Made by a program: the position numbers and the translations under genes. Below, piece by piece: positions 24,775 through 60,164 of a stretch of DNA of 64,000 nt. This stretch comes from Omnitrophica WOR_2 bacterium RIFOXYA2_FULL_38_17. GTDB lineage: Bacteria > Omnitrophota > Gorgyraeia > Zapsychrales > Zapsychraceae. The stretch lies in contig MHHG01000053.1 in the NCBI GenBank assembly GCA_001805965.1, positions 1,512-65,511 on the forward strand, given 5' to 3'. The notes under the pieces were generated by a model, which searched no databases, was not told where the DNA came from, and saw only the letters and a list, made by a program, of their open reading frames with translations. Positions within the stretch are counted from its first letter, which is position 1; every line of letters begins with the position of its first letter.

Positions 24775-26406
24775 TTGACACAATATTCCCATGATAGTAG
24801 TATATTGACCATAATGAAAATCCTTAGAATAATTGTTATAACACTATTAACCTTGTCAGCTATTATCATCGTTCGTAACGCATGGCTTTGCGATGATGCC
24901 TACATAACCTTTAGGGTAGTGGATAATTTCATAAATGGTTACGGCCTCAGGTGGAATGTTGCAGAAAGAGTACAAGTATATACCCACCCTCTCTGGATGC
25001 TCCTATTATCATCTTTCTATTTTTTTACACGAGAGATATTTTTTACAAGCAATGCAATATCTGTAATCTTATCTCTGCTAGCTATAACATTAACCGCTTT
25101 TAAGCTCTCTAAAGACCATAGAAATGCGATTCTTGCAATAACAATACTGTGCATGTCCAAGGCCTTTATAGATTATTCTGCATCCGGGCTTGAAAACCCC
25201 TTAACACATTTATTATTAGCACTCTTTTTTATTGCATTTTTAAAGCCTGATACCTCAAGAAGGAAATTATTGGCATTATCTCTTTTCACATCCCTTGGCA
25301 TCCTAAACCGCATGGATACACTGCTACTTTTTGGGCCTTCTCTGTGCTATGCAATATTTGAGTATTTAATAACCTCATCTGACGTTAACCTGAGATCAAG
25401 ACTGATAAAAACTTTTTTCTCCTTATTGACCGGGTTCTTACCTTTTATCCTTTGGGAGGCTTTTTCAGTATTTTACTACGGATTCCCTTTTCCAAACACA
25501 GCATACGCAAAGTTAAATACCGGAATCCCAGCCATTATCTTGGTAAAGCAGGGACTTTATTATTTAATAGGTTCGCTCCCTAAAAAAACTGACCTTGTGA
25601 CACCTACTGTCATCTTATCAGGGACCGTTCTTGCAGTTTTCTCAAAAAGCAACCGAAACAAATCCATTGCAGCAGGTATTTTACTGTATGTTCTCTACAT
25701 AGTAAAAATAGGTGGCGATTTTATGATGAGCAGATTTCTTGCTGCGCCTCTTTTGTGCTCGGTTGTCATAATCAGCAGAAATAAAATTTTCAATAAATAC
25801 AAAATACTTGTTCCGGCGCTCGTTTCTATTATCATTCTTGGATCCCTGTCACCATTCAATCCTGTTCTTTCAGGCATTAATTATGAGAACACGAATGATA
25901 ATGTTTTTGTTTACAACAAAGGCATTTCTGACGAGCGCGGGTTCTATTACAAGCATTCCAGCCTTCTTAAAGCGCTAAAGGGTGAAAAAATGCCGGCTCA
26001 CCAATGGGTTGACCAGGGCATTGAGCTTAGAGAGAAGAGACCTTTTTCTCTTATTTACTACACTAGCGTAGGCTATTTAGGTTTTTTTGCAGGGCCGCAC
26101 ACAAGCATTATAGATGCTGTCGCACTTTGCGATCCCTTGCTTGCAAGGCTACCTGTGCCAAAGAAAAAATACTGGAGAATCGGGCACTTTGAAAGGATAA
26201 TTCCTTACGGTTATACAGGGAGCATGCATATTGCACAAAGCCAGTTCAAGGATAAAGACCTAGAAAAGTATTATTACAAGTTATCTCTAATAATAAGTGG
26301 GGATCTGTTAGATAAAAACAGATTTGTGGAGATCTGGAAGATGAATACGGGACAGTACAGGCATCTCCTTGAAAACTACAAAAGAGATATCAGCGATAAG
26401 AACTAA
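24775..26406 (+). CDS. Polytopic membrane protein, probable GT-C-fold glycosyltransferase
   Basis: About 12 TM segments. First-loop acidic motif WLCDDAYITFR after TM1, as in GT-C enzymes. Confidence 0.5.
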   Translation: MTQYSHDSSILTIMKILRIIVITLLTLSAIIIVRNAWLCDDAYITFRVVDNFINGYGLRWNVAERVQVYTHPLWMLLLSSFYFFTREIFFTSNAISVILSLLAITLTAFKLSKDHRNAILAITILCMSKAFIDYSASGLENPLTHLLLALFFIAFLKPDTSRRKLLALSLFTSLGILNRMDTLLLFGPSLCYAIFEYLITSSDVNLRSRLIKTFFSLLTGFLPFILWEAFSVFYYGFPFPNTAYAKLNTGIPAIILVKQGLYYLIGSLPKKTDLVTPTVILSGTVLAVFSKSNRNKSIAAGILLYVLYIVKIGGDFMMSRFLAAPLLCSVVIISRNKIFNKYKILVPALVSIIILGSLSPFNPVLSGINYENTNDNVFVYNKGISDERGFYYKHSSLLKALKGEKMPAHQWVDQGIELREKRPFSLIYYTSVGYLGFFAGPHTSIIDAVALCDPLLARLPVPKKKYWRIGHFERIIPYGYTGSMHIAQSQFKDKDLEKYYYKLSLIISGDLLDKNRFVEIWKMNTGQYRHLLENYKRDISDKN

Positions 26407-27782: not shown

Positions 27783-29744
27783 TTATTTTTTATAATTATT
27801 GTTTGCCTCATAACTCTTTACTGCAATTTCCCTCATCATCCTGGCTTTCTCAAAACCAGGTTCCAATCTAAGTGCATGGTCAAACTCACGAACCGCAAGT
27901 TTAAATTCACCTAACTTCCCCAAAATCACGCCTCTCCAATAGAATGCCTTTTCATTTTTAGGGTCGATCCTAACAGCCTCGTTCAGATCATCTATTGCTT
28001 CCTTATACTGGCCCTTTGCACGATAAACCAAAGCCCTGTTCAAATATCCAAAGCCAAGATCAGGATTTATATCAATCACCTTGTTGAAATCCTTCAAGGC
28101 CAGATCATATTCGTTTAACTGCAAGTAAAGCGTCCCTCTGTTATTATATGCTCTAAGGTATTTTGGCTTCAGCTTTATTACATTTTTATAATCATCAAAA
28201 GCCTCATCATATTTTCCCGTCGCCATAAAAATATTGCCTCTATGAAAATAGGTTATATATGCCTGGGGAAAAGACCCATCTATGTCTAAAGCCATCTGAA
28301 AGTCTTTAAGCGCTTCATCAAACTTCTGCCTCTTGCTAAAAATTATCCCTCTATTTGTATATGCATAGCTGCTCGGAACTATCTCAATTGCTTTCTCAAT
28401 ATACATAAGGGCTTTATTCAGCTCATTATTTGCCAGATATGCTTTACCTAAATTTAAATTAGGCCTATATTTATTTGGTGATTTGCTACAAGCATCCTCC
28501 CATAAAGATATTTCGGTGCGCCAGACGTTATTACGGGCATAGGTCGTTACAGACAAGACCGCAACAATGACTGTTGTAACAGCCATTAACTTCTCTCTAT
28601 CCTTGATCGATCGCGATAGCCAGAAAGCTATTGCTATAAAGATCCCAACAGAAGGCAAATAAAGCTTATGCTCAAAGATCACATGACTCCTAGGGATCAA
28701 TTCACATGACAAAGTAATAATAATCCAAAAGACAGCAAAAGCAAAAACAGGATAAACACGCCTGATCCTATAAGCAAAAAACATAACCGTCATCAGCATG
28801 AAATAGCTAAACATAACTGCCGGCTCAAAAACATTAGAAGACAAGGCAAGATCATAATCAATATTCTGATTTATCGGAAAAAATACCAGCCTTAAGTAAA
28901 TGGCCCAGACTTTTAACTGAGTGATCAAATACTTCCCCAGGGTAATAATATCCCCGTCATGTGATCCGGACATCTTCTGACCCAGAAAAATGTTCGAGAT
29001 ATTAAAAGAAAATAAAAATGGAGATATAAAGCCTATGAATATAAAGCAAAACAACAAAAGCTTAAATATGGAAATCCCGGGACTATTTCCCTGCTCCCTT
29101 TTTGAAGCCAATAGTAATCTTTCTATCAATAAAATAGCCAAAGGAAGAGTTATAACTATCTCTTTTGTAAATAATCCAAATATCGCAGCAACAAGGGCAG
29201 CAACAGCATATCTGACATCAAATTTATTTCTTGATACAGAAAGCCTCGATTTCAAATAGAAACAAACGCTGGCAAGATAAAACATAGCAGCCATCGATGC
29301 GAATCGCTGAGTTATATACGTTACTGCCTGGGTCTGAACAGGATGGCTAACAAATAACAGCGCTGCAAAAAATCCGATATATTGTCCATCATCGTTGGCC
29401 TTCATTGTTTTCAGCCAGGGTGTTGAATAAACAAGAACTACTAACCACCACACAAGCAAAGCCGAGATTAAATGAATGCCCAAATTAAAAACATGATATC
29501 CAAGAACATTCAATTTTCCAAAATGATAATTTAAAGCAAAGGATAAAAAAGAGATAAAACGGGTAGGAGCAATGGTCCTTGAATAAGCGGCTATTTCATC
29601 AAAACTCCTAATATGCTCATTATTAACAATGAACTCAATATCGTCTAATTGGAATTCGGATCTTAGAGTATTGGAATATATTACGAGGCCAAGAAAGATC
29701 AGTATGGCTAACCTTGTTAGCAGATTTTTATCCTTTAAATTCAT
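27783..29744 (-). CDS. TMTC-like protein: N-terminal DUF1736/PMT_2 membrane domain plus C-terminal TPR repeats
   Basis: LDDIEF motif after TM1, about 10 TM segments, then at least 6 TPR repeats. Confidence 0.7.
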   Translation of the reverse strand: MNLKDKNLLTRLAILIFLGLVIYSNTLRSEFQLDDIEFIVNNEHIRSFDEIAAYSRTIAPTRFISFLSFALNYHFGKLNVLGYHVFNLGIHLISALLVWWLVVLVYSTPWLKTMKANDDGQYIGFFAALLFVSHPVQTQAVTYITQRFASMAAMFYLASVCFYLKSRLSVSRNKFDVRYAVAALVAAIFGLFTKEIVITLPLAILLIERLLLASKREQGNSPGISIFKLLLFCFIFIGFISPFLFSFNISNIFLGQKMSGSHDGDIITLGKYLITQLKVWAIYLRLVFFPINQNIDYDLALSSNVFEPAVMFSYFMLMTVMFFAYRIRRVYPVFAFAVFWIIITLSCELIPRSHVIFEHKLYLPSVGIFIAIAFWLSRSIKDREKLMAVTTVIVAVLSVTTYARNNVWRTEISLWEDACSKSPNKYRPNLNLGKAYLANNELNKALMYIEKAIEIVPSSYAYTNRGIIFSKRQKFDEALKDFQMALDIDGSFPQAYITYFHRGNIFMATGKYDEAFDDYKNVIKLKPKYLRAYNNRGTLYLQLNEYDLALKDFNKVIDINPDLGFGYLNRALVYRAKGQYKEAIDDLNEAVRIDPKNEKAFYWRGVILGKLGEFKLAVREFDHALRLEPGFEKARMMREIAVKSYEANNNYKK

Positions 29745-33147: not shown

Positions 33148-34146
33148 CTACTCTTGGGCCCCTTTTTCCTTTAAATAATCAATTATCCGCTGATCACCAG
33201 ATTTTACTGCCAGCATTAACGGGGTCATTTTAAACATGCCGGTCAAATAAACATCTGCGCCATTCTCAATCAATATCTTTACTATCTCAAGCTGGTTTAA
33301 AAAATCTTCATTGGCATTACTAATCGCCTCGGAAAGCGCTGTATAGCCATTTTCATTTATCAAATTAACTTCTGCCCCGCGTCCGATCAAAAATTTAACC
33401 ATGTCTGCCTGCCCCCACCAGCTGGCCTCCATCAACAAAGTCTTACTTTGATAAGGCCCTGGAGCATTGATATCAGCTCCATTCGCTAACAGATATTCAA
33501 CAACATCTTTGCGGCCGGACCTTGCTGATAAAAATATTGCACTTTTTGATAACTCTCCTCTTTTTTTCATTAAATATTTCAAAATATCCAAATTTCCCGA
33601 ATATGCTGCAATATCAGCAGCGGTCTCAGGCTCTTCTGGCAAACGCGACCACCCTTTTTCATTTACTTTGGCTCCTTTTTGTATCAGCAATTTCACAAGA
33701 TCCAGATTACCTTTATATACAGCAGTCATTAATGGCGTCCAGTTCCAGTTAACAGATATCCCGTGCATAATTAGCTGTAAACCCTTAACATTGACTTCCG
33801 CTCCTGCTTTAATTAAAACTTCTGCTGCTTCCATGTTTTCAAGGGCTATGGCATTGATAAGAACTGAATTTGAGAAAGAGCTGACATGATCAACATCAGC
33901 GCCTTCCTTTATCAAATATTCTATCATCTTGATCTTGTTACCAGCAACTGCTGCTCCAAGAGCTTGATCAAGCTTATGCTGATCAGACTCTTGAGCCAGA
34001 AGGGCCTTGACAACTTCGATATTTCCGCTTCTAGCTGCAGAAAACAAACCACCTTCTTCGTATTGGGCAATTACTGTCTTAGGCAAGTAAAAGAAAAATG
34101 TTGAAAATAAAATGGCCTGAATGAGTACAAACTTTGTTTGATGCAT
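33148..34146 (-). CDS. Secreted ankyrin-repeat protein
   Basis: Signal peptide plus at least 7 ANK repeats (TPLM.A...G...V.LL...GA.VN). Confidence 0.8.
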   Translation of the reverse strand: MHQTKFVLIQAILFSTFFFYLPKTVIAQYEEGGLFSAARSGNIEVVKALLAQESDQHKLDQALGAAVAGNKIKMIEYLIKEGADVDHVSSFSNSVLINAIALENMEAAEVLIKAGAEVNVKGLQLIMHGISVNWNWTPLMTAVYKGNLDLVKLLIQKGAKVNEKGWSRLPEEPETAADIAAYSGNLDILKYLMKKRGELSKSAIFLSARSGRKDVVEYLLANGADINAPGPYQSKTLLMEASWWGQADMVKFLIGRGAEVNLINENGYTALSEAISNANEDFLNQLEIVKILIENGADVYLTGMFKMTPLMLAVKSGDQRIIDYLKEKGAQE

Positions 34147-34184: not shown

Positions 34185-34628
34185 TTAAGGTGTGAAGGGC
34201 AAATTAATTGACTGATTGTTGTTAACAGCAATATTGATCTCTTTTCTGATCACGCTCAGTAATTTCCTTTGATGAAGAGGCTTTGCAAAGGCACGGAATA
34301 AACGGCCATCTACATCTATTTTTTCATCTCCCTTATCCATCTCAACACCCATTGTAACTGTTATACATACGATCGGAATGCCTTTTATCTCAGGATCATT
34401 AACTATCCGCCTTATTACCTGAACACCATTAATATCAGGTAGCATAAGGTCCATCAATACAAGATCCGGCTTTTCAGCTTTTGTCATATTAAAGCCATCT
34501 TCGCCGGTCCTTGCACATATAGAAACATAGCCATCCATCTTTAGCCATTTTTCCAGTACCTTTACCATGCTTGGGTCATCATCAACAATAAGTATTTTTC
34601 TTAGAACTTTAGGCATTTTGCGTCCCAA
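34185..34628 (-). CDS. Stand-alone response-regulator receiver domain (CheY-like)
   Basis: ILIVDDD...LVLMDLMLP... Confidence 0.8.
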   Translation of the reverse strand: MGRKMPKVLRKILIVDDDPSMVKVLEKWLKMDGYVSICARTGEDGFNMTKAEKPDLVLMDLMLPDINGVQVIRRIVNDPEIKGIPIVCITVTMGVEMDKGDEKIDVDGRLFRAFAKPLHQRKLLSVIRKEINIAVNNNQSINLPFTP

Positions 34629-34748: not shown

Positions 34749-37700
34749 TTAATGCGCCAAAAGCATAGCGGCATTGGAAATCGGTACTATCTGAATTATC
34801 ATCGGAGAAAAACCCAATATCGTCATATTTTCATATCCATTCATATCAAAACTGAATTCAAATCCAAAGCCGTCTCCTCTTGTTTCAATCTCCAGATTCC
34901 TAGTATCAAGGTCAATACCGCCAACTCTTTTTTCTTCCACTACGTCAGTAACATTTCCTTGGACCAGAACTTCTTTTAGTCCTTGTTGCATAAACAAACT
35001 TATGGTATTTATAAAATCTTTTCTTGCTTTAAGCTTATCCCGGGAGTCTCCCCATTCCCTTCGTTGAAATTCGGTTCTATCAGCTAGCTCCACAGCAACT
35101 GTAGCAAGCTCCAAGGACATAGATGCATCTGTCATTCCAATTAAAATATACTCTCCTTCGACATTCTTGCTTCCCTGAGAAAAGAAAAATCCGAAATTAA
35201 TATCTTTAAAAGATAATTGATCGACCAAAGCATTTCTCATCATTTTATATTTTTGCCCACTTCCAACATATTCATCTAAGAAAAGCACTCTTTGATTATA
35301 TCTAATATCATCATAATCCAAGCCCTCTTCATCTAATGCTATTCTTAACACTTCATCTTTCTTCCACGCAGGCACAACCATATCATAAGAAACCTGATCT
35401 TTATAAAGTGTTTTGTTAACCTCTCCACTCAAAGCAACAACTCGCGGCCTTTTTTCGGTTGGGAACAAATTGTCCCATGTAAGTTCAAACATCGTTTTAC
35501 TTAACATGGAGCTATAACCAGAAATTAATACAATGTCCAAACCTTCCAGCTTATCATGAACCTGCATTACGAGACTCTTTGCAGCTCTAATTATTTTTAA
35601 TCCGGATTCCTCATCTATCCCTACCGAAGCTGCTAATGCAGCAAATTCTCCTCCTAAGATTGCTGAATCCTTATTTTCAACGACTGTAAATTCAACATCT
35701 ACACTAGAACCTTCAGCATAATTGACCCTTGATATCTTAGGTAAAGTAACAGTAAAAGTTGTACTATCCGGCTGGCTGTCTAAGCCTAATACCCCTCCCA
35801 ACTGGTCAACTCTTCCCTGGACTAATTGCAATCCATAGCCAGATCCACCCTGAACACCTGCACCTTTCTCTTCAGTCAACCCTCCCGTAGTTATAAGTTT
35901 TAATAGTCCAGCCTGAAGCTGTACAATAGCATCAACATCATTTTCTGATACAGGCTCAAATCCTTCCATAAGACCATAAAAATCGCCAAAATATAATTTC
36001 CCATCCTCTTTATTAGAAAATAATGTATTATTTCTTGCAGCTGCCTTTGCTTTTGAGATCAATTTATTCCAGTTTATCCCTCCAAGATTAGCAACTTTAA
36101 ACCTTACACCCTGGTCATCTGTCGGTTCAAAACGGACAATTATATCCCCTTCTTTCTGAGCCTCAACAGCATTATCAATAAGTTCATTTGCTATCTCTGC
36201 AAAAAGATATTTTATTCTTCCAGCCACATCTTTAGAAAAACTGCCCGTAATCGGATTAACATAAATATCCCCTTTGATAGAATAACGATTATTGACAGAT
36301 CCCCTTACTCCGCTTAAGATTGCATCCTTTGCACTAAATGATTTTATTGAATCACTATCCATTTTGTCATTCTCATCACCGAGAACTGAAGTGTCAGCAT
36401 AACCATCCCTCGATACCCTGTAATAGAACAAACGTCCTGCATACCAGGCTTCCGGTGAACTATAATTCTCTTCAACCACTCTTTGAGTCCTGAATTGACT
36501 TGAATCAATCGTAACAGGCCCAAACCCGCTAATTATGGTCGTTCTTATTTCACCGTCAGCAGATAAAATAGAAAACAGGTCTTCAAGATGCTGTGTAACT
36601 TCCGCTCTCGGACCATCCCTAAAGTAGTGGCTAAGACCAAGATTACTGTAAATCAAACCTATCTTTTTATTTATTCCTGCATCATTCATTAATTTCTCAT
36701 AAATTGCTTTAAAATTTTTTGGAGTATCTAATATAAAAGTCACGCTTTTCGGAGCATTATGCCAGCTTTCCGGGATCTGATTGGCGAAGGCAATTATCTT
36801 TACATTCCGAATCCCTTTGGCCTCTAGCTCTCGAGCTAGCCCAATCACCCCTACTGCATCACCCGCCCCCCAATCCACAACAACGATCGGCTCAGCATCA
36901 ACATCTGTGCTGGCGCCTAACTCATAAAGCTTACTCATTATTCCATATCTTCCATTGAGCGTTGCAAAAGATGTATCAGTCTTTGCCCAGCTCCTTCCTG
37001 TATCATGTATGGTAATAACACCATTTTCATCCCTGACCTCATAAAATGAACGCGTAGTTAATATTTTCTGGAAATCATCATCTAATAGAGTTGAATAGAT
37101 CTTTGCTCCTCCATCTAAGTCTGCCACTTTCACTTCAGACAACATAGATCTATCTGGCCTTAATCCTGCTTCATTCTGAATAACAGGAAGAGTTATTCTA
37201 AATATTGCACCAGCTTCAATCTCCCCGTTTTCCTTTGCTTGACTCCAGTTCTCAGCACTTATCTTCCCGCCATGATTCTCAATTATTCTTTTACTAATAG
37301 CTAATCCAACACCCGTTCCAAACTCACCTTTTGTAGAAACAAAATCTTCAAAAATACTATTAGGATCTTCTAATTTAATTCCTCCGCCAGTGTCCTTGAT
37401 AAACAATTCAACCATATCTTTATTCTGGGAAAGTCTTGATCCTAACTCAATTCGCCCCCCATCTTTCATTGTTTCATTTGCATTCTTTAAAATATTTATA
37501 AAAACTTCTGTCATCCTCAGATCATCAACTTCCAACGACAATCCATCAGCTTCAAGATTAACAAAATCCTTATTAATAACGATCTCACCTCTAGCAATTC
37601 TTTCAACCATTCTTTGTATACCAGAAGCAGAAGCTGGCACGGAATTAATAGAATGAGCAAAAATAAACTCAACATCAACTTTCCGCTTATTTAATTTATT

Positions 37701-39356
37701 ATCAAGCACCCTATTTAAGTACTCAACAAAATGTTCATACGAAGTAAGCATTGTGGAAATATATTTTTGATATATATTGCCCTTATCCTTTCCTTCAAAA
37801 ACAGTACTTAAACTTTTCAGAACAGCCTCTAATCCCTGTTTTTCCTCGTTAATCCTATTTCTAAATTGTTCGAATGCCCGATACATTTGTATATTATCGT
37901 GGATCCCATCTTTAGGCTTAAATATCCCCTGAAGATTCGGGTTTATTGATAACATAAAATCAAATGCTCTTTTAAAGTCTTCATTTCCATCAATAAGACC
38001 TTTGTTGTCCTGATAAATTATCTGTCTGAACCCAGCAATTGCCTGAGCGAAATTGTTCACTTCATGGAACAGATAATGTCTCATCTCCCACAAACTACTG
38101 CCCAAAGAATTCGCTTGCTCTGCGTTAAGCATTGAAGTGTCTTTTGTTCTATTAGAAGAATTCTGATCAACTTCCGGCACCACGTTGATCTGTGCAATTA
38201 ACGGCGATCTAGCATTTATATTTTCTGGTCTTCCATTTTCTTCAACAATATTACCTACTTTTGTAAGAACTGTTCCTCCTGAAAAATACTTTCTAGGAAT
38301 TATCTGTTGTGTTGTATAGTCATATTCTTCTTTAATGTAATCATAGACACCATCTTTGAATGCCTTTAAATACTCCTGGTATATTTTCTCTTTGACTTCT
38401 TTATCATCAACATCAACACCTTCTATCTTATTCTGATCAAGATAAATACGTCCGAACATGCTTTCTTTTAAGTTGCGCTTAAACCAGGTTGCCAATATTA
38501 GAGAATTATAAATTTGACGAAGAGCTGCAAAATTTTTGCCTTCATTTACTTCCTCTTCAATCGCAGGGATTACTACCTCCCTCAATATTTGAGTTGATAG
38601 CTTAACCTTTTCATCTTTATTTTCTTGGCGCTCTTCTCCCTGCTCATTTTCATTAGGTTCCCCAATACCTTTTTGATGAGACATGGCTAAATAGTCTTCC
38701 TCTAACATTACCTTCAGCCTGCTGTTGGTAACATAGGCAACCTCTCCATATTCATAGATCACAGCTCTTTCGGGTATGATCCATATCTTATTAAAGGTCT
38801 CAACCGGAATATCCGTTGTGCCAAACTTCTCCTGAGCTTCCGAGTAGACCCTCTCCCAGAACTTACTGCCAATTTCATCTTCCGGATAAAGCAAAGAAGA
38901 AGTTAATTGTTTTAAAATATAATCCTGAGCCAAAAGGTCCCGGCCCATCTCGGTTTCACCAAAAATTTTTGGGATTATGCGATCTTTTTCATATGGGGAT
39001 AAGTTGACCCAAAGATCATCATCCGGGATTGTTAATGAGGCAAGGAAGTATTTTACTAATTTTGAAACCTCAGCTTCAAGCTCATCACCTTGAACTGCAG
39101 AATCACCTTTATCGATAATAAAATCAAATTTAAAAGGTTCTTCTGGATAGATCTTTATTCCTTTTAAAATGACTGGAATATATGGAGGAGTTAAATAAAC
39201 CATGGAATTGGTCAAGGCCAATTCAGAAAAAACCTGGGCTTGCGCCTGACCGATAGGCACAACCATCAATTGAAGGGAAATTACTACAAATAAGATCCAT
39301 GTTTTAGCTCTACAAAAAATAGATCTCAACTTATTCATTTGTTTGGTAATAAACAT
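34749..39356 (-). CDS. 1535-aa multidomain protein: N-terminal signal/anchor, large N-terminal region, histidine-kinase-like core (H-box-like plus HATPase_c), Rossmann/MTase-like middle module, second GHKL ATPase module, unknown C-terminal domain
   Basis: MRHYLFHEVNNF (H-box-like). ILKNANETM...DTGGGI...GTGVGLAISKRII (first GHKL). VVVDWGAGDAVG (Rossmann). IANELIDNAVEA...ANLGG...GSGYGLQLV (second GHKL). Confidence 0.65.
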   Translation of the reverse strand: MFITKQMNKLRSIFCRAKTWILFVVISLQLMVVPIGQAQAQVFSELALTNSMVYLTPPYIPVILKGIKIYPEEPFKFDFIIDKGDSAVQGDELEAEVSKLVKYFLASLTIPDDDLWVNLSPYEKDRIIPKIFGETEMGRDLLAQDYILKQLTSSLLYPEDEIGSKFWERVYSEAQEKFGTTDIPVETFNKIWIIPERAVIYEYGEVAYVTNSRLKVMLEEDYLAMSHQKGIGEPNENEQGEERQENKDEKVKLSTQILREVVIPAIEEEVNEGKNFAALRQIYNSLILATWFKRNLKESMFGRIYLDQNKIEGVDVDDKEVKEKIYQEYLKAFKDGVYDYIKEEYDYTTQQIIPRKYFSGGTVLTKVGNIVEENGRPENINARSPLIAQINVVPEVDQNSSNRTKDTSMLNAEQANSLGSSLWEMRHYLFHEVNNFAQAIAGFRQIIYQDNKGLIDGNEDFKRAFDFMLSINPNLQGIFKPKDGIHDNIQMYRAFEQFRNRINEEKQGLEAVLKSLSTVFEGKDKGNIYQKYISTMLTSYEHFVEYLNRVLDNKLNKRKVDVEFIFAHSINSVPASASGIQRMVERIARGEIVINKDFVNLEADGLSLEVDDLRMTEVFINILKNANETMKDGGRIELGSRLSQNKDMVELFIKDTGGGIKLEDPNSIFEDFVSTKGEFGTGVGLAISKRIIENHGGKISAENWSQAKENGEIEAGAIFRITLPVIQNEAGLRPDRSMLSEVKVADLDGGAKIYSTLLDDDFQKILTTRSFYEVRDENGVITIHDTGRSWAKTDTSFATLNGRYGIMSKLYELGASTDVDAEPIVVVDWGAGDAVGVIGLARELEAKGIRNVKIIAFANQIPESWHNAPKSVTFILDTPKNFKAIYEKLMNDAGINKKIGLIYSNLGLSHYFRDGPRAEVTQHLEDLFSILSADGEIRTTIISGFGPVTIDSSQFRTQRVVEENYSSPEAWYAGRLFYYRVSRDGYADTSVLGDENDKMDSDSIKSFSAKDAILSGVRGSVNNRYSIKGDIYVNPITGSFSKDVAGRIKYLFAEIANELIDNAVEAQKEGDIIVRFEPTDDQGVRFKVANLGGINWNKLISKAKAAARNNTLFSNKEDGKLYFGDFYGLMEGFEPVSENDVDAIVQLQAGLLKLITTGGLTEEKGAGVQGGSGYGLQLVQGRVDQLGGVLGLDSQPDSTTFTVTLPKISRVNYAEGSSVDVEFTVVENKDSAILGGEFAALAASVGIDEESGLKIIRAAKSLVMQVHDKLEGLDIVLISGYSSMLSKTMFELTWDNLFPTEKRPRVVALSGEVNKTLYKDQVSYDMVVPAWKKDEVLRIALDEEGLDYDDIRYNQRVLFLDEYVGSGQKYKMMRNALVDQLSFKDINFGFFFSQGSKNVEGEYILIGMTDASMSLELATVAVELADRTEFQRREWGDSRDKLKARKDFINTISLFMQQGLKEVLVQGNVTDVVEEKRVGGIDLDTRNLEIETRGDGFGFEFSFDMNGYENMTILGFSPMIIQIVPISNAAMLLAH

Positions 39357-39467
39357 AATTAAACTAATTAAGATTAATAATAATAGAAAATAAAATTTAT
39401 ATAAAAAGTATACAATATATTATTTTTTATTACCAATTAACGGAAAAAAGAGGAAAAAAAAGAGTTT

Positions 39468-43169: not shown

Positions 43170-45797
43170 ATGGAACCAGACAAAAAAACATTAAATGATA
43201 ATAGCGCAAAAGCTCGTTGCGTTTTAAATATTTCAAAAAAAAGCACATTCCTTAAGTATTTGCTTGTCTTTATACTTTCATCCTCCATAGGCATATATTT
43301 CCGCCTTTTTCCTTTAATAAACTACTCTCCTGGTGATTTTCGAGAAAAAGCTACTTTAATTGTTATTCATCAGCTTAGAGAAATTGTGATAAAAAATATC
43401 GAGGCCAATAATCCTGACCTTAGTCCTCAGGAGAAAGCTTTACTGATAAGAACACAATTTAACAGACTTTTAAATACAGAAAAACTGAAAGTGCGGAGTT
43501 CAATAAATTCAGTCACTAGGAATTTCGCCGAGCAATCTCTCGAGAAAAGAAATAGCCCTTATCTTTTAGCTTCAGATTCTTTTTATTATTACGGATTAAC
43601 AAAGAACATAGTAAAAACCGGGAAAATAGCCGACACTATTAAGGGAAGCAAATACTTAAATCCTCTTATGCTTGCACCAAACGGCCATTATGAGCCGTTA
43701 AACCTACATCCCTACATTGGCTTCTTTATCTATAAAATAATGCTGATCTTTAACCAAAGTACTGACCTGATGCATGCTGTTAGCTATACTCCGCTTGTTA
43801 TTGCAGCATTATCAGTGGTCCCATTCCTTGCAATTTGTTATTCTTTTGGAGTAAGCGCAATAGCTTCTTTTGTGGGAGCTGTCTTTTTCCTTCTCGCTCC
43901 GATTTATATTAAAAGAAGCACCTTCGGATGGTATGATAATGACCCCTACAATACCTTTTTCCCATTACTGATCTTATCAATAATTTTTTTGGGATTATCA
44001 AAAAAATCCCTAAAACAAAATTTGCTATATGGACTTTTAAGTGCCTTCTTGCTTATGCTTTATGCCTTTTTCTGGCAGGGATGGGTCCTAATCTTCTTTG
44101 TTATCTTTTCATCAGGCATATTAATAATTTTATATGACCATTTTATTTTGAAAGATAAGCTTGTGTCAAAAAATTCTTTTTCATATTTCGGTATTTTTTC
44201 AATTCTAAGCTTCTTTGCAGTGTCATTAGCTTTCGGTGCCGGTGAATTCTTTGTTCTATTTAAAGAAGGCTGGATAGCATTAAAGAATTTCTTAACACCC
44301 CAATTATCATTATGGCCAGACCTATACATGAGCGTATCTGAGCTTCACAATGCAACGCTTAGTTATATAGTTGAATACTCCGGGGGTAAATTCTTTATAG
44401 CTATAGCCTTATTGGGATTTATTGCTTCACTGATCACTATCCCAAGGCAAAAAAAGCCTGAAGACGTTCCAAAAATCATCATGATAACTGTCTTTCTATC
44501 GATATCCCTAATTATCGCTTCCGGAGCACAAAGATTTGTTATGCTTGTATTTGTCCCTCTTTCAATATTCTTTGCCATTGGAATTGAGAGGATTTACAGA
44601 TTTTTTTCTTTCATTATAAATTTAAAAATACCTGAATCAAGGAATTCAGCCAGCTTAAATCCTAAGAAATTAATTGCTAACATTTTATTGGCAATTGTTA
44701 TCCTAGTTACTGTTTTTATACCTATAAAATCTATTCACAATACAATTGAATCTCTGCTTAATCCTATATTTAATGAAACATGGGAAAGTGCTTTGCTCCA
44801 AATTAAGGAAAAAACACCCAAAGATAGCATTGTTACCACCTGGTGGCCACCTGGGCATTTTATAAAAGCTATTGCAGAAAGAAGTGTTACGTTTGATGGT
44901 GCTACAATAAATGTTCCCCAAGCATATTGGGTTTCCAACATATTCTTAAGCCAGGATGAAACTCAAGCTTTAGGTTTTATAAGAATGCTTAACAATAGTG
45001 GGAATAAAGCTGCTGATTTTCTAGTCCAAGAACGCGGCTTTGAACTATCAACGAGCATAGCACTTTTAAAACTTATTACCGCGTTACCTCCAATAAAAGC
45101 TGCAATCGCCCTATCAACTGTTTTTAATGATGCTGACTCCATTAACAGATTATTAGAACTAACTCATAAAACACCGCCTCCATCCTACTTACTGATATAC
45201 AATGAGTTTGTAGAAAATAATCTTCAGCTGAAATTCATTGGAAAATGGAATTTTACCGAGCTTGAGAAAATCAATAAGGACCCTGCCCTTTTAAAACAAG
45301 TCCCTGATAGGAATTCTGACCAGTATGTTCAATTCCTCTGGAAACTTGTTGGAGGCGCTTATAAATATAGCGGTATTCTTAATCAGCTTGACGCTAACCG
45401 AAATAGAGTGATCTTCGACGAAAATGTTATAATCGATTTAAAAACAAAAGAATGTATTGTAAATTCAAATACATACGGAAAAGGCACGCCTATAAGTGTC
45501 TTATATCTTGAGGATAATGAATTAAAAGAAGAACTGCAAAAAACCCCAACTCTCTCATATTCTGCACTACTAATAAAGGATCAAGATGCATATAAATGCA
45601 TCCTTCTTGATAGGCCTCTGGCAAGATCCCTTTTAGTTCACCTTTACTTCTTTGAAGGAAAAGGCCTAAGATATTTCAAGCCTTTCATAAAGGAATCTGA
45701 TCTGACAGTACGAACGAAGATAATGGTATACGAAGTTGACTGGAAACAATATTCAGAAGATACTCAAATGAAACTCCCTAATCTCCCGGGTTTATAA
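43170..45797 (+). CDS. STT3/AglB/PglB-type oligosaccharyltransferase homologue with a variant WWPPGHF motif
   Basis: 13 TM segments plus a periplasmic domain. EL1 DSFYYYG. EL5 SVSE motif (MSVSELH). WWPPGHFI where STT3/AglB/PglB-type enzymes carry WWDYGxx. Confidence 0.6.
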   Translation: MEPDKKTLNDNSAKARCVLNISKKSTFLKYLLVFILSSSIGIYFRLFPLINYSPGDFREKATLIVIHQLREIVIKNIEANNPDLSPQEKALLIRTQFNRLLNTEKLKVRSSINSVTRNFAEQSLEKRNSPYLLASDSFYYYGLTKNIVKTGKIADTIKGSKYLNPLMLAPNGHYEPLNLHPYIGFFIYKIMLIFNQSTDLMHAVSYTPLVIAALSVVPFLAICYSFGVSAIASFVGAVFFLLAPIYIKRSTFGWYDNDPYNTFFPLLILSIIFLGLSKKSLKQNLLYGLLSAFLLMLYAFFWQGWVLIFFVIFSSGILIILYDHFILKDKLVSKNSFSYFGIFSILSFFAVSLAFGAGEFFVLFKEGWIALKNFLTPQLSLWPDLYMSVSELHNATLSYIVEYSGGKFFIAIALLGFIASLITIPRQKKPEDVPKIIMITVFLSISLIIASGAQRFVMLVFVPLSIFFAIGIERIYRFFSFIINLKIPESRNSASLNPKKLIANILLAIVILVTVFIPIKSIHNTIESLLNPIFNETWESALLQIKEKTPKDSIVTTWWPPGHFIKAIAERSVTFDGATINVPQAYWVSNIFLSQDETQALGFIRMLNNSGNKAADFLVQERGFELSTSIALLKLITALPPIKAAIALSTVFNDADSINRLLELTHKTPPPSYLLIYNEFVENNLQLKFIGKWNFTELEKINKDPALLKQVPDRNSDQYVQFLWKLVGGAYKYSGILNQLDANRNRVIFDENVIIDLKTKECIVNSNTYGKGTPISVLYLEDNELKEELQKTPTLSYSALLIKDQDAYKCILLDRPLARSLLVHLYFFEGKGLRYFKPFIKESDLTVRTKIMVYEVDWKQYSEDTQMKLPNLPGL

Positions 45798-47421: not shown

Positions 47422-48909
47422 TTACTCCTCCGTAGTTTCCGCTTGAACCACATCATCGTCAGCAAACGATTTTAATTTTAAAGTTATCTCAAAAGCAGAC
47501 ACATCTTTTCCCCTGTCCTTCTTTGAGGTAGTTGACTTTATCTCTACGCTTTTGAAAAGAGGTGACTCTTTTAGCGTTGTGCCTAAATTAAAAACAAGCG
47601 AAGCAATATCAGAAACCCCTTGGATACTTACGCTTCCGTCTTCATCAAGAAATACATTAGTCAAATAAACACTGTCGGGGATATTATAATACAATTCCTT
47701 TATTGTTTCTAAGCTAACCATTCTTCCTGCTAAATATTTTTGAATAATCTTTGTTTGCTTAGCATCTTCCTCAAGCCTTACAACTTCCTCCCTATTAGCC
47801 TTGTACTTTGATTTCAGATTGTTCAAATATGTGCTCTTAAAATAAATACGCAACCCTAAAGTTAAAGCCACTAAAAATAGAACAATAAAACCTGCCATTG
47901 CCGCCCTCAAAAATTCTACCCCTTGTTCCTCCAATGATCTTTGCATAAGGACTTCCTCGGGCATAAGATCAACTTGCATATCCTTAACAATCGATACAGC
48001 AGAGACTATATCAAGGAATGAAGTGTTTGAATAGTTATTGGCTATTTTCTTTAATGCTCCGCTTGCTACTTTAACATTATCAACATAAGGTATAAACTCA
48101 ACTACCCAATTAAGCTTTTCTTTTAAGGCCGTTTGAAGGGCTTTTGTATTTTCATCATCGGTTGTAATCAAATACTGTACCGGAGCAGGCTCAATATCTT
48201 CATTAATGTAAAGGTCCAAAGTCATTTTAATCTCATCAACAAGCTTGTTAATTGCATCTATACCCTCGCTAGCAAGCTGATTTTTACCGACAGGAATGCT
48301 CCTTGAAGAAATAGAGATTCCGCGGAAAGCTATAACAAAATTTGTTGAATTTTCATCAACATCAATGATTCCCTTTGGAGTTGCTTCTGCCTTCCATCCA
48401 AGCGCATCAGAATATAATCCGGCTATACCTTCTGGGGCAAAAAGCACTTTTTCGATCTTAATTCCAGCTTTTTCAAAAACCTCCAACTGGCTTTTAAGAA
48501 CATTTTTGTTGGCAATAACAAGCAGTATCTTTGAATAATTGCTCTTATATACTCCTATGTTCACAAAACCAACCTGGATTTCATCCCTTGAAAACGGCGT
48601 ATGCCTTCCTGCCTGCAAGCCTACAATAGACTTGATCTCTTCAGGATTAGTCGAAGGAACTTCAATATTCTTTGTTGTTACCATGCTAGGAGGGACAACA
48701 CAAACTGCAGTGTATTTCTTTGCATTAAAACTACTTAATGCAGATTGAACAGTTTTAGGAAGATCTGCTTCAGACATTCCCTTAATATCTTTTGAAAAAA
48801 CATTAAGAACTTTACATGCTTTTAACGAACCTTTGACCTGCGCTATTTTCAACAGGTCATCACCCAAAGAAATACAGATATACTCATTGATCTTATTAGA
48901 CATAAACAA
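47422..48909 (-). CDS. gspL: T2SS GspL-like protein (actin-like cytoplasmic domain, TM, periplasmic domain; PilM-PilN-like)
   Basis: N-terminal YICISLGDDLLKIAQV actin-fold start. TM at about residue 330. Periplasmic C-terminal domain. Confidence 0.55.
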   Translation of the reverse strand: MFMSNKINEYICISLGDDLLKIAQVKGSLKACKVLNVFSKDIKGMSEADLPKTVQSALSSFNAKKYTAVCVVPPSMVTTKNIEVPSTNPEEIKSIVGLQAGRHTPFSRDEIQVGFVNIGVYKSNYSKILLVIANKNVLKSQLEVFEKAGIKIEKVLFAPEGIAGLYSDALGWKAEATPKGIIDVDENSTNFVIAFRGISISSRSIPVGKNQLASEGIDAINKLVDEIKMTLDLYINEDIEPAPVQYLITTDDENTKALQTALKEKLNWVVEFIPYVDNVKVASGALKKIANNYSNTSFLDIVSAVSIVKDMQVDLMPEEVLMQRSLEEQGVEFLRAAMAGFIVLFLVALTLGLRIYFKSTYLNNLKSKYKANREEVVRLEEDAKQTKIIQKYLAGRMVSLETIKELYYNIPDSVYLTNVFLDEDGSVSIQGVSDIASLVFNLGTTLKESPLFKSVEIKSTTSKKDRGKDVSAFEITLKLKSFADDDVVQAETTEE

Positions 48910-48985
48910 TCCTTAACATTTGGATATTATATACGATTTAATTTTATTATATACTAATATAACTAACTGTAACAACAGAAAATCA

Positions 48986-50041
48986 TTATTTTTCTCTCCA
49001 ATATTCTATACGATTTTCTAATGCATTATACACGCAGACGGCTTCAAGAACCTCTTCTTTATTACGTATTCTAGCCCTACTTCCTATCAAATAAAAGGAA
49101 GAATTTGTTTTTATTCGTTGGGCTAAATTCAGAAGATCTATCTCTCTTATTTCAGATATTTCTAGTTTTGTAAAGGCAAGCATGTCAACGGCCATGTCAA
49201 AAGTTTTATGAAATATATGGTCATCAACGCTAAAATCTTTGTCATCAAATCCTCTTCGCACCATTAAAAATTTATCAATAACACTTTGGCTCAATCCAAT
49301 AGCATAGAGAACCTGATATGAAGCTGTATTTATATTTACCAAACCATCTCCGTAAACAGTAATGAATGGATACAATCTTTCATATACATCCTCGGTAAAT
49401 CCTTCGACAAGCAACAATTCATCTATAAGCTCAAACGGCTTGCTTTTGATCTCATAGGGAAATTCCAGGTTTGAGTAATATTCATTACTATAGAAACCCT
49501 CGGCATGCGATTGTCCGAATTCCCGCCAATCAATAATATTATTAGCCAACCACGCGGCATCTTCTTGATCAAGCCCCAGAACACTCATTATCAAACGCAC
49601 GATAACATCCTGAGGCGCCACATTAATATTTATTTTACTTTCTGCGTCGACAACTCCATACTTGATTTCAACTGCAGATGAACTGCTGCCATAATAGGGA
49701 TATGACACGTCAAAATACCCGTCTCCGACCACTATTCCCTTGAATTTATCCGGATTATTATGCCTATAATATTTCCCGTATGACGTATAAAGATCACCGT
49801 TCCTGCTGATATCCATCCTTATTGAAGCAATGGCTTTTTTTATTCCAGCATCAGCAATATAATGAAGCTTGCTTCTTGTTTCCAATCTCAAGAGCATTGT
49901 AGCTTTTTGCTGGATCTTCATTCCAATCTGAACAGCAAATACGCTCAAAAAAACAACAGTCCATAAAGCAAGGATCAGAACAGAGCCCGCTCTTTCACGA
50001 CTAATCAAATTTTTAAAATTCATATACAAAGCTCTCGCCAA
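48986..50041 (-). CDS. gspK: T2SS minor pseudopilin GspK-like
   Basis: RGSVLILALWTVVFLSV N-terminus, 351 aa. Confidence 0.6.
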   Translation of the reverse strand: MARALYMNFKNLISRERAGSVLILALWTVVFLSVFAVQIGMKIQQKATMLLRLETRSKLHYIADAGIKKAIASIRMDISRNGDLYTSYGKYYRHNNPDKFKGIVVGDGYFDVSYPYYGSSSSAVEIKYGVVDAESKININVAPQDVIVRLIMSVLGLDQEDAAWLANNIIDWREFGQSHAEGFYSNEYYSNLEFPYEIKSKPFELIDELLLVEGFTEDVYERLYPFITVYGDGLVNINTASYQVLYAIGLSQSVIDKFLMVRRGFDDKDFSVDDHIFHKTFDMAVDMLAFTKLEISEIREIDLLNLAQRIKTNSSFYLIGSRARIRNKEEVLEAVCVYNALENRIEYWREK

Positions 50042-50665
50042 TTATCCGCCTATAGGTATATCAATGAATTTTCTCATTGACCTTTCGCCACGGCTATCTT
50101 TAAACACAACCAATACTTCAATAGCTGAAGGAATATAATCTAAAATTTCATTCTTTGTGATTTCACCTTCAGGGGTTAGAACAAAATAGGTGAATTTCAG
50201 CCTTTCAACAGAGCCAACTATTTTTGATTCTCTAGAATATTGCTCACTTACTGCCTGGCTGTAATTAGCCTGCCTTCTATAAATACTGTCTGATATTGGA
50301 TCAAAATAATATTCTACTTTTCCTAACTGATCAACATATGAACCCTCCGGATGCCCTGATCCCTTATCTGCTTTTGTATAAACTATCGCAGGAAAACTAA
50401 ACCTAAAGACATCACCCTGTGGCTTTATCCTCGAATAAGAATAAACATTTCTCAGATCTTTACTTATTTTATCAAAAAACATTGCTATATCTTCCTCAAC
50501 AACCAGGCGGTTAGACTCCTGCCAAACCCTGATACCGCTAGATAAACAACTGTAAATAGCAACGCTAATTACTGCGATAAGGGATGTTACGATAAGTATC
50601 TCAATCAGCGTCATCGCTGATTTATTTTCCAATCTTTTAATGGACATTTTAAATTGAGTTCTCAT
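50042..50665 (-). CDS. gspJ: Minor pseudopilin (GspJ-like) with a prepilin N-terminal domain
   Basis: ...SAMTLIEILIVTSLIAV... Confidence 0.6.
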   Translation of the reverse strand: MRTQFKMSIKRLENKSAMTLIEILIVTSLIAVISVAIYSCLSSGIRVWQESNRLVVEEDIAMFFDKISKDLRNVYSYSRIKPQGDVFRFSFPAIVYTKADKGSGHPEGSYVDQLGKVEYYFDPISDSIYRRQANYSQAVSEQYSRESKIVGSVERLKFTYFVLTPEGEITKNEILDYIPSAIEVLVVFKDSRGERSMRKFIDIPIGG

Positions 50666-50697
50666 TTTCTTTATTAGTTGGGAAAAATCTAAAGCGG

Positions 50698-51165
50698 CTA
50701 TTTAAAATACTCGAAATCTGAAATATATGCTGAACGCGATAAGATCATTTCCTTCCCGCCAGAATCCCAAAGAAGAGAAAGGTCCAGTTCAAAAACATCT
50801 GCAAAATCTTCAACTTCTGAAATATTCATTCTTTGCCTAAACTCTATCTCTTTCGCTCCGACATTAAGCTTTTCTTTTCTGTTAAGTTCGAACGGTAACG
50901 TTTCATATACCCTTAGCATTCTTTCAATCGCAGTTATCCTATTATCAAGCAGCGTAGTAGCATAAAGCCTATTCGTTAAGTAATTCATGCGGTCTAAGGA
51001 AACTATAAATCCTTTAAAGATAATAACTATACCCAAAGACAGCACTGCAAGGGCAACCATAACCTCAACAAAAGTAAACCCTGAATCTGAAAACAAAAGC
51101 CGTCCTCTTCTCTTAGACAACTTCTCTTTCCTGTTCAGGGTATTATTTTTTCTCTTATGAAACAC
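50698..51165 (-). CDS. Minor pseudopilin (GspH/GspI-like)
   Basis: ...SGFTFVEVMVALAVLSLG... Confidence 0.6.
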   Translation of the reverse strand: MFHKRKNNTLNRKEKLSKRRGRLLFSDSGFTFVEVMVALAVLSLGIVIIFKGFIVSLDRMNYLTNRLYATTLLDNRITAIERMLRVYETLPFELNRKEKLNVGAKEIEFRQRMNISEVEDFADVFELDLSLLWDSGGKEMILSRSAYISDFEYFK

Positions 51166-51215
51166 TTATGTATTTTTGATTTTGCAAAAACTAATATTTA
51201 CAAGCTGGTAAGATT

Positions 51216-51659
51216 CTATTCTTCCCAATTATTTATATCATCACCAGAATTGCTTTTATCTCCGCCTAAAGAACTTAAATCATAGTCCGGCCTCTTCTTT
51301 CCCGGAGAGGTATAAACATAAGGCGAGCCCCACGGGTCAATTGGGTCTTTTTCAATATATGGGCCATTCCAATTGCGAGCCTCTGGAGTTGTGCTAGGCT
51401 TCTTTTTTAAAGCGGCCAATCCTTGTTCTGTAGAAGGGAAAGTCCCGTTATCAAGTTCATAGAGCTTTAATGCCGTAGCTAATTGAGAGTTGATATCTGA
51501 TTTTGCAACAGAAACTTTTGCCTGCTCACTTCTTCCCACAAGCCTGGGGACGACCATAGCAGCTAAAGCTGCAATAATAATAACCACCAGCATAATTTCA
51601 ATTAAAGTAAATGCCTTATTTCCTTTAAATAAAATTCTCATATCTCCTCCAAAGTTCAA
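51216..51659 (-). CDS. gspG: Major pseudopilin GspG (probable start at 51641)
   Basis: AFTLIEIMLVVIIIAALAAMVVPRL...AKVSVAKSDI...DPWGSPYVYTSPG...YDLSSLGGD...DINNW is a near-textbook GspG. Confidence 0.9.
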   Translation of the reverse strand: MNFGGDMRILFKGNKAFTLIEIMLVVIIIAALAAMVVPRLVGRSEQAKVSVAKSDINSQLATALKLYELDNGTFPSTEQGLAALKKKPSTTPEARNWNGPYIEKDPIDPWGSPYVYTSPGKKRPDYDLSSLGGDKSNSGDDINNWEE

Positions 51660-51705
51660 TAACTAATTAATCCATGTAATATCTATATATTATCATACAA
51701 CAGAT

Positions 51706-53759: not shown

Positions 53760-53841
53760 TTTAAAAAACTAATTCTTTTGAACGCCTTAAAAGATCACAA
53801 ATAGCAGATTAATATATTTTCAGATTCGATATTTCGGAAGG

Positions 53842-56100: not shown

Positions 56101-56102
56101 GT

Positions 56103-57674
<1,572 letters not shown>

Positions 57675-58526: not shown

Positions 58527-58563
58527 TTACAATTACCTTATATTCTTTAACACAATATCATAG

Positions 58564-59304: not shown

Positions 59305-59374
59305 ATTAATTAACTCCTTTTATAAAGCATTTTTAATACCAGTCAGAAAAAAGTCTTATATAAAGTACTATTTT

Positions 59375-59608: not shown

Positions 59609-59630
59609 TATTAATAATCCTTAAAATAAT

Positions 59631-59849: not shown

Positions 59850-59871
59850 AAATTTATCCTATTTGTAATAT

Positions 59872-60159: not shown

Positions 60160-60164
60160 ATTAA

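Follow-up and report, generated by a model that had tools for sequence, protein, structure and literature searches.

A 1,535-residue Omnitrophota protein with a signal peptide and two GHKL domains belongs to a large family of modular, probably exported proteins

Introduction

Omnitrophota are widespread, uncultured, ultra-small bacteria that are thought to live on other cells. Prior work on their unusual proteins has centered on giant genes, and the pairing of a signal peptide with cytoplasm-type domains has been noted without explanation. Here we analyze a gene of Omnitrophica WOR_2 bacterium RIFOXYA2_FULL_38_17, located at 34749..39356 on the reverse strand of a 64,000-nucleotide stretch of contig MHHG01000053.1 (hereafter called the “window”, whose coordinates are used throughout), and its 1,535-residue product. 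A first-pass annotation of this DNA had reported an unrecognized domain combination. The combination turned out to be one of the hundreds of payloads of a large Omnitrophota family. The protein is not a one-off strange kinase but a member of this very large, uncharacterized family of paralogues, which is apparently undescribed and was found almost only in Omnitrophota. The new elements are a compact and very abundant family with sharply defined end modules, a compositional signature inside the proteins—Cys-rich signal peptides as compared to Cys-free mature chains—and evidence of payload exchange between fixed ends.

The gene and its reading frame

The gene at 34749..39356 (−) is one unbroken reading frame of 1,535 codons plus a stop codon, beginning with ATG. 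It is the only long open reading frame (ORF) at this position, uninterrupted over 4.6 kb, and the gene call of the source assembly, in which it lies on a 110-kb scaffold of groundwater-type metagenome DNA in ENA, is the same ORF. The protein is 100% identical to its own sequence cluster, P0001, which holds 12 member sequences. The start codon is the first ATG after an upstream stop codon. We considered a mis-called start, and rejected it because this first ATG already yields the signal peptide and the start region is conserved in the homologues; the signal peptide is lost only with starts at Met31 or later. An anti-phage defense function was also rejected, as PADLOC gave no match for the 1,535-residue protein.

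Conserved ends and a variable middle

A search of 5.8 billion proteins, in which 8,000 candidates were scored, returned more than 4,475 significant matches. The best 119 of these, the query's own cluster aside, align with the query only over residues 1–365 (50–60% identity) and the last ~60 residues (about 30–50% identity), while the sequences between these ends are unrelated from match to match. The frame shared by the family consists of a signal peptide, an N-terminal module of ~325 residues (the “N-module”), a variable payload, and a proline-rich module of 60–70 residues at the extreme C-terminus (the “C-module”). Every complete ORF has a single N-module close to the start and a single C-module at the end. 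Nearly all of the named sources are Candidatus Omnitrophota. Furthermore, a scan of one genome per species confirmed at least 592 loci, nearly all labeled Omnitrophota or located in automatically labeled metagenome-assembled genomes. Genomes hold several copies; five of the best 80 loci, for example, come from the isolate OFTM38. Two family genes stand in tandem in 11 of these 80 loci. Same-strand tandem pairs with different payloads were observed in L001, L021, L024, L030, L034, L037, L042, L049, L058, L064, and L080, and in L021 and L064 one member appears split into two ORFs, suggesting a frameshift or decay.

The N-module of the query (residues 41–365; 38262..39236, −) keeps its 50–60% identity to the 119 matches across otherwise unrelated payloads. 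The motifs LWVNLSPYE, GxTEMGRDLLAQDY, NTFNKxWIxP, EVNEGKNF, LRQIY, and IPRKYFSGG are characteristic of the module, and all are present in the query. Sequence searches against Pfam, NCBIfam, and the Protein Data Bank (PDB) gave no match for either the N-module or the C-module. The AlphaFold2 (AF2) model of the N-module is a mixed α/β structure with a predicted local distance difference test (pLDDT) score of 66. Foldseek returned no neighbor of this model below E 0.1 in the PDB or BFVD, and no pore-forming or known translocation fold was found by the fold search in these two databases.

The C-module of the query (residues 1475–1535; 34752..34934, −; VGGIDL...GFSPMIIQIVPISNAAMLLAH) carries the motifs of the family module, which reads GGIDLNPxxLxLxxxGxGxxFxxP...GFxPVIxxIxPxTNLPLLLG. 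It shares 27–47% identity with 44 other C-modules. In most members, the C-module is followed by an acidic tail ending in ...LSxx, and the commonest distance from GGID to the stop is 69–71 residues. The window protein stops right after ...MLLAH and lacks this tail. The tail-less form was also observed in a remnant locus (L083, described below) and in a minority of the other matches, with 57–63 residues after GGID. AF2 predicts the C-module with pLDDT 70–83 and almost no regular secondary structure, a prediction that would fit a docking peptide better than an autonomous domain.

How do the two ends relate to the payload between them? The N-module and C-module distances are correlated across the members (Mantel r 0.46, a value reached in 0 of 1000 permutations), and members with N-modules only 4–12% apart can differ by 500–1,400 payload residues. 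The correlated divergence of the ends, together with these payload differences, argues that the ends are inherited together, with the payload gained or lost between them. These comparisons show a cassette-like turnover of the payloads between fixed ends.

The repertoire of payloads was read from the precomputed Pfam content of the matches. The metabolic enzymes include phosphoglycerate kinase (PGK), phosphoglucomutase (PGM), UDP-glucose pyrophosphorylase, PPDK and PEP-utilizing enzymes, phosphoglycerate mutase, and starch synthase. Ser/Thr kinases, PP2C, UbiB-type kinases with M48 peptidases, and an M3 peptidase form a second group. The signaling and other domains include DnaJ, GNAT, HAD, HD, GGDEF, receiver, and HTH domains as well as helicases, and methyltransferases, phosphoribosyltransferases (PRTases), and WD40, TPR, and HEAT repeats also occur. 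By this domain content, the payloads of the family consist of cytoplasm-type enzymes and signaling domains that differ from member to member.

The N-terminus and the evidence for export

The first 40 residues of the protein (39237..39356, −) have the anatomy of a Sec-type signal peptide, in agreement with the first-pass annotation, which had pointed to the cleavable-looking PIGQAQA|QVF; the ORF that carries it is intact. The n-region (residues 1–18) holds five Lys/Arg residues, and the hydrophobic core is WILFVVISLQLMVV, with a length of 14–15 residues. The c-region is PIGQAQA, followed by QVF, and contains the small-x-small motif AQA|Q at residues 38–41, where cleavage is predicted. This layout recurs in all of the homologues with a complete N-terminus (109/109). 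Their n-regions average 3.95 Lys/Arg against 0.30 Asp/Glu, and the hydrophobic core of every one has a 12-residue Kyte-Doolittle mean of at least 1.71. A small-x-small site follows the core, in the form x-x-A|Q in at least 60 of them, and the family as a whole conserves the c-region with its helix breakers and the small-x-small motif. The +1 residue after the predicted cleavage site is Gln in at least 60 of the 109 members, which would allow the formation of an N-terminal pyroglutamate.

The topology points in the same direction. A 19-residue hydrophobicity scan of the whole 1,535-residue protein detected a single hydrophobic segment, with Kyte-Doolittle values above 1.6 only for spans starting at residues 13–22, and no second segment able to return the chain to the cytoplasm. 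Five Lys/Arg residues precede the hydrophobic helix and none are present in the 20 residues after it, a charge distribution that would place the N-terminus inside and the body of the protein outside.

Moreover, the Cys content differs between the signal peptide and the rest of the protein. The mature chain (residues 41–1535; 1,495 residues) contains no Cys, and the sole Cys of the protein, C15, belongs to the signal peptide. Given a mean Cys content of 0.92% in the other 45 ORFs of the window, the probability of finding none in the mature chain is ~1e-6. The same contrast was observed in the family. Among 110 members, the payload regions contain 81 Cys in 127,316 residues (0.064%), while the signal-peptide regions of the same proteins contain 77 Cys in 4,216 residues (1.83%); in 75 of the 110, the payload region is entirely free of Cys. 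A difference of this kind between parts of one protein is difficult to account for without both removal of the N-terminal segment and, on the remainder, a constraint of the sort that acts on proteins leaving the cytoplasm. Type V secretion passengers and many exoproteins are similarly cysteine-poor.

The family-wide anatomy of the signal peptide, the topology, and the composition therefore form three lines of sequence evidence that agree, and export of the mature chain is well supported by them as a prediction. The first-pass annotation had left two options, a membrane anchor for a large cytoplasmic signaling protein or an exported GHKL protein. The exported protein is favored by the 109/109 signal peptides, the single hydrophobic segment, and the Cys-free chain.

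Four other long ORFs of the window are also free of Cys or nearly so, at 1–2895 (−), 4990–6348 (−), 61785–63098 (−), and 63104–63967 (−). The first of these runs off the start of the window and has 2 Cys in 965 residues. These ORFs may perhaps encode further exported proteins; neither an N-module nor a C-module of the family was found in any of the four.

The payload of the window protein

The payload of the query consists of four units: a histidine-kinase-like unit, a methyltransferase-like domain, a degenerate second GHKL domain, and a PRTase-like domain. The domains named in the first-pass annotation were all found, although its inventory did not list the PRTase-like domain or the conserved N- and C-modules.

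Residues 416–725 resemble a histidine kinase unit with an unusually long helical part. The helical segment (residues 416–600; 37557..38111, −) is possibly a long region similar to the dimerization and histidine phosphotransfer (DHp) domain, and the H-box noted earlier is present in it as the H-box-like motif FHEVNNF, in which a motif search located HExxN at His431. Pfam HisKA gave no match even at E ≤ 10. In an alignment of six sequences, His431 is aligned in four, namely the query and three of its five closest same-layout paralogues. The helical segment is followed by the first HATPase_c domain, the kinase catalytic domain (residues 611–725; 37182..37526, −), which Pfam detects with E 5e-27 in the whole protein and 2.5e-18 in the isolated segment. 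The ATP-binding boxes were located by motif search, with the N box NILKNA at residue 621, the G1 box DTGGGI at 655, and the G2 box GTGVGL at 680, and the apparent F-box IFEDFVST was read from the sequence. The best NCBIfam alignments of this domain are with the AtoS, ZraS, and FixL kinases, far under the cut-offs of these models (86 versus 646 bits, for example).

The next unit is a Rossmann domain resembling the class-I S-adenosylmethionine (SAM)-dependent methyltransferases (residues 745–985; 36402..37124, −). It recurs in 12 other family members and has no Pfam match. The motif I pattern D/ExGxGxG was found by motif search as DWGAGDAVG at residue 828. A profile built from 14 segments of the domain retrieved mostly SAM-dependent methyltransferases from the PDB, including all of the best matches. 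The E values are weak (9e-4 and 3e-3), and the aligned part comprises motif I and the strands that follow it. Thus, the DxGxGxG segment described in the first-pass annotation is present, while the profile matches that would make it a methyltransferase are weak.

The second GHKL domain is a divergent HATPase_c (residues ~1037–1191; 35784..36248, −), detected by Pfam with E 6.3e-10 and a score of 39.9 bits, as compared to the curated cut-off of 26.4, which bears out the earlier report of two GHKL modules. Its G1 box, ANLGGI, is degenerate, and a long lid insert can be read from the sequence.

The last unit before the C-module is the PRTase-like domain (residues ~1236–1445; 35022..35651, −), which emerged from homologue and profile searches. 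An exhaustive search of 1.84 billion representatives with residues 1001–1450 returned one close orthologue, P0121 (E 8e-182), and about 30 weaker homologues of residues 1250–1440. These are mostly stand-alone proteins of ~200 residues, and the domain was also found within proteins of 3,189–4,428 residues. Neither the nine stand-alone homologues that were scanned nor the isolated segment 1236–1445 has a Pfam match. A profile of 19 sequences retrieved mostly type I phosphoribosyltransferases from the PDB, including the best matches (best E 1.5e-4), with the phosphoribosyl pyrophosphate (PRPP) loop aligned. The corresponding PRPP-loop-like sequence in the query, VLFLDEYVGSGQK, partially fits the type I loop pattern (four hydrophobic residues, D-D/E, x2, T/S-G, x-T). 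The AF2 model of residues 1211–1535 is poor (pLDDT 53), and its PRTase-like part has pLDDT below 50. We name the domains at 745–985 and 1236–1445 methyltransferase-like and PRTase-like, and claim no more for them than this resemblance.

The downstream receiver gene and syntenic relatives

A stand-alone receiver gene (34185..34628, −; Response_reg E 9e-20) lies 120 bp downstream of the big gene, as reported in the first-pass annotation, and its position is conserved. Upstream, the window holds a canonical HAMP-HisKA-HATPase kinase and a gene of the uracil-DNA glycosylase (UDG) family, and a nucleoside transporter gene lies downstream. In GCA_018896855.1, the orthologue P0121 (L084:1-3721) stands in the same order of big gene, receiver, ankyrin, and nucleoside transporter. 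P0121 is 64–81% identical to the query over the methyltransferase-like, GHKL, and PRTase-like parts, the shared units occur in the same order, and the best-conserved part is the methyltransferase-like domain, with 81% identity. P0121 has two kinase-like units in tandem, as compared to one in the window protein.

The second relative is a remnant. A C-module profile search, which returned 31 short fragments, led to L083:1114-1866, on a metagenome scaffold with ~79% DNA identity to the window. In this relative, the segment corresponding to 39363..35318 of the window (~4.05 kb) is missing, from the start codon to about residue 1346 of the big gene, and the leftover coding sequence of the PRTase-like domain and C-module is interrupted by an in-frame stop. 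The genes that flank it (UDG, receiver, ankyrin, and transporter) have remained intact. Thus, the big gene is maintained in some lineages and dispensable in others. Since the receiver gene is intact after the loss of ~4 kb of its neighbor, it does not depend on the big gene. The link between the two that the first-pass annotation had implied is therefore weak, and a functional connection is doubtful.

The ankyrin-repeat protein encoded downstream of the big gene (33148–34146, −; 332 residues) has a signal-peptide-like N-terminus and no Cys. Its gene adjoins the receiver gene in both syntenic relatives, and the protein looks like another exported interaction protein of the eukaryotic style.

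Comparison with known systems

The Omnitrophota giants (“Archaeovorins” and related proteins) have at least 10,000 residues and many transmembrane helices, and join signal peptides or transmembrane helices with cytoplasm-type Pfam domains in a topology that is debated (bioRxiv 10.1101/2023.11.21.568195, bioRxiv 10.64898/2026.06.07.730766, PMC10066038). They share with the window protein and its family the phylum, a repertoire of methyltransferase, HATPase_c, GNAT, HAD, PGM, starch synthase, and receiver domains, and the same topology puzzle. Giants have also been reported near type II secretion system (T2SS)/type IV pilus loci, a type of locus also found here, 8 kb away from the big gene. In contrast to the giants, the window protein has 1,535 residues, one signal peptide, and no other hydrophobic segment. 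The texts that were searched contain no mention of the conserved N- and C-modules, a mid-size family, or the Cys pattern.

Among the secretion systems of other bacteria, we compared the family with three. First, type IX cargo proteins carry a sorting domain at the extreme C-terminus, and TANFOR proteins have a conserved N-terminal domain. The type IX C-terminal domain is a β-sandwich of 70–100 residues, with Pfam and TIGRFAM models of its own, in Bacteroidota hosts. The layout of the present family—a Sec signal peptide, a variable payload, and a conserved C-terminal end—is similar to that of the Bacteroidota type IX cargo and TANFOR-type polymorphic toxins (PMC7073777). The differences lie in the Omnitrophota hosts, in the C-module, which is predicted to be irregular rather than a β-sandwich, and in the payloads, which are of the housekeeping type rather than toxins. 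No Pfam or NCBIfam match to a type IX C-terminal domain was found on the C-module.

Second, MARTX toxins have conserved N- and C-terminal arms that flank variable enzymatic effector modules acting in the cytosol of another cell. They use type I secretion without a Sec signal peptide, and possess glycine-rich repeat arms and a cysteine protease domain. The family resembles them in its conserved ends around variable enzymes, but the MARTX features were not seen in the window protein by Pfam. Third, autotransporters and TpsA proteins are exoproteins of large size that depend on Sec, and their signal peptides are often long and conserved. Their passengers are markedly cysteine-poor, and TpsA proteins have a conserved N-proximal targeting domain. 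The Sec signal, the conserved N-proximal module, and the scarcity of Cys liken the family to these type V passengers. However, the model of the N-module is mixed α/β with no fold match in the PDB, and Pfam found neither a β-barrel nor a two-partner secretion (TPS; hemagglutination activity) domain in the window protein. Every testable defining feature of the type IX/TANFOR, MARTX, and type V systems is thus absent from this family member.

Finally, the likeness to kinases of the NtrB/AtoS type consists of the boxes of the ATP-binding domain, including the apparent F-box, and the upstream HExxN motif. The window protein differs from these kinases in its predicted extracytoplasmic kinase core, in the absence of a HisKA profile match, and in having no second membrane span. 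His431 lies ~180 residues from the ATP-binding domain, and the corresponding distance in typical histidine kinases is ~110 residues. With a single cleavable-type signal peptide, no second span, and a Cys-free chain, the prediction does not place the kinase core on the cytoplasmic side, and Response_reg has no match in the 1,535-residue protein that would indicate a fused receiver. The conventional hybrid kinase with a mis-called start, which the first-pass annotation had left as an alternative, is contradicted by these observations together with the conserved start region. The protein is best described as a modular, probably exported protein with conserved ends that presumably serve in trafficking; it fits in no named family and comes from a phylum already known for odd multi-enzyme exported proteins.

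Where does the payload act?

We consider the protein to be probably an exported modular carrier, rather than a conventional kinase. The process would start with the Sec machinery, which would take the unfolded chain across the membrane, and the signal peptide would be cut off before Gln41. The shared N- and C-modules would then handle the chain in the same way in all members, to target it, anchor it, or pass it through a further barrier of the envelope. Finally, the payload would act outside the cytoplasm of the producer. The site of action would be either a host or prey cell attached to it or the envelope or surface coat of the producer itself. Given such action outside the producer cytoplasm, we infer that the big protein and the downstream receiver do not work as sensor and partner in a normal two-component pair.

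Several points weigh against this carrier model. The payload domains require ATP, SAM, and PRPP, for which no supply outside a cytoplasm is known, and the intact ATP-binding boxes of the first HATPase_c domain suggest real catalysis. A gene for a cytoplasmic receiver adjoins the big gene in a conserved position, and no conserved neighbor, including any transporter or secretion gene, was found across the 80 loci. Both the cleavage and the localization are predictions from sequence, the model of the N-module is only moderately confident (pLDDT 66), and the role proposed for the terminal modules is indirectly deduced for each of them. The need for ATP, SAM, and PRPP, however, would itself favor the cytoplasm of another cell, or prey contents released at the contact site, as the place of action. 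Action in another cell would fit the presumed epibiotic or predatory life of Omnitrophota.

The carrier model may be extended in this direction. We tentatively propose, as an idea well short of probable, an unrecognized Omnitrophota delivery scheme, in which the N- and C-modules act as a carrier pair that exports Cys-free cytoplasmic enzymes to attached cells or for nucleotide-dependent biochemistry outside the cytoplasm. If this is true, Omnitrophota genomes hold many interchangeable “cartridges”, with the big gene as one of them, and the cargo comprises kinases, methyltransferases, PRTases, glycolytic and sugar-nucleotide enzymes, and chaperones. In the end modules we see candidate signals for sorting or translocation by an unrecognized pathway, and the family offers a ready-made list of enzymes that may act at the surface or as effectors.

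Delivery of the protein as an effector into a host or prey cell is a special case of the carrier model, and one that we regard as possible with similar reserve. The end modules would carry the unfolded payload across the outer envelope into the attached cell, where the kinase-, methyltransferase-, and PRTase-like domains would use the ATP, SAM, and PRPP of the victim. Proteins that pass a second barrier in the unfolded state, such as autotransporter and two-partner passengers, are typically depleted in Cys, as are the query and the family here. The repertoire of payloads is sensible only where nucleotides exist, and decay of the gene between relatives, as between the window and L083, is a behavior of accessory effectors. 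The signal-peptide ankyrin protein and the type IV pilus/T2SS–F-ATPase locus nearby are further points in favor. The lifestyle also agrees: an epibiotic life as parasites or predators is presumed for Omnitrophota (PMC10066038), and the RNA of one predatory Omnitrophota species has been seen inside dead prey (PMC13153191). Against delivery, the N-module showed no pore-forming or known translocation fold in the PDB or BFVD, and the 80 loci showed no conserved linkage to a secretion machine. Furthermore, it is not obvious how the housekeeping-type enzymes that make up many of the payloads would be of use as effectors.

The main rival to export is a membrane-tethered cytoplasmic scaffold, which we consider unlikely. 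Here, the N-terminal helix would be an uncleaved anchor, or would not be used for export at all, the body would remain cytoplasmic, and the end modules would assemble a membrane-proximal lattice of many enzymes. The kinase, methyltransferase, and PRTase-like domains would then have their substrates, and the kinase could reach the downstream receiver. Such a scaffold would suit the payload domains, every one of which, throughout the family, is of the cytoplasm type and depends on nucleotides. Receiver genes, moreover, not only lie downstream of the big gene but also are the commonest neighbors of the family, adjoining its members as stand-alone genes in 7 of the 80 loci. A 2026 preprint reads many of the long Omnitrophota proteins as anchored in the inner membrane with cytoplasmic domains (bioRxiv 10.64898/2026.06.07.730766). 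However, the charge distribution orients the window protein with its N-terminus inside and its body outside, and an uncleaved anchor does not account for a c-region with helix breakers and a small-x-small motif that is conserved throughout the family. A cytoplasmic location also leaves the Cys-free mature chains, as compared to the Cys-rich signal peptides, unexplained, and in L083 the receiver gene has outlived the big gene.

A conventional sensor histidine kinase, with the N-module as a periplasmic sensor, a cytoplasmic kinase core, the receiver as its partner, and the other domains as accessories, is very improbable, being largely refuted by the topology and the family context. The intact HATPase_c with its H-box-like HExxN motif, the receiver gene 120 bp downstream, and the alignments with AtoS, ZraS, and FixL speak for it. 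Nevertheless, these alignments score far under the family cut-offs, Pfam HisKA was not detected, and His431 is not conserved in two of the five closest paralogues. No second transmembrane segment separates the N-module from the kinase, and in other members the N-module is followed by PGK, PGM, DnaJ, peptidases, or helicases, none of them a signaling output. Least credible of all is an artefact, whether a chimeric assembly, a fusion of neighboring genes by sequencing error, or a decaying pseudogene: the odd mix of domains and the broken remnant in one relative might suggest one, but the frame is uninterrupted over 4.6 kb, cluster P0001 has 12 member sequences, the positional orthologue P0121 is 64–81% identical with the shared units in the same order, and other members of the family also contain the methyltransferase-like and PRTase-like domains.

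Other genes of the window

A cluster resembling type IV pilus/T2SS genes occupies 47422–63976, 8 kb from the big gene. It includes a PilM-PilN fusion, a GspK-like gene, an MA-superfamily peptidase, GspF, and GspE with MshEN and PilZ, and it runs directly into the genes for the β, γ, and α subunits of an F-type ATPase. The cluster corresponds to what has been reported in Omnitrophota as the “symbiotic F-type ATPase/T4aP locus” (PMC10066038). Between this cluster and the big gene, Pfam identifies an STT3-type oligosaccharyltransferase homologue at 43170–45797 (+), and on the other side of the big gene a TPR-repeat protein at 27783–29744 (−). By their sequences, the latter protein and the product of 24775–26406 (+) are large multi-span membrane proteins that might be glycosyltransferases, in which case they would hint at protein or envelope glycosylation near the big gene.

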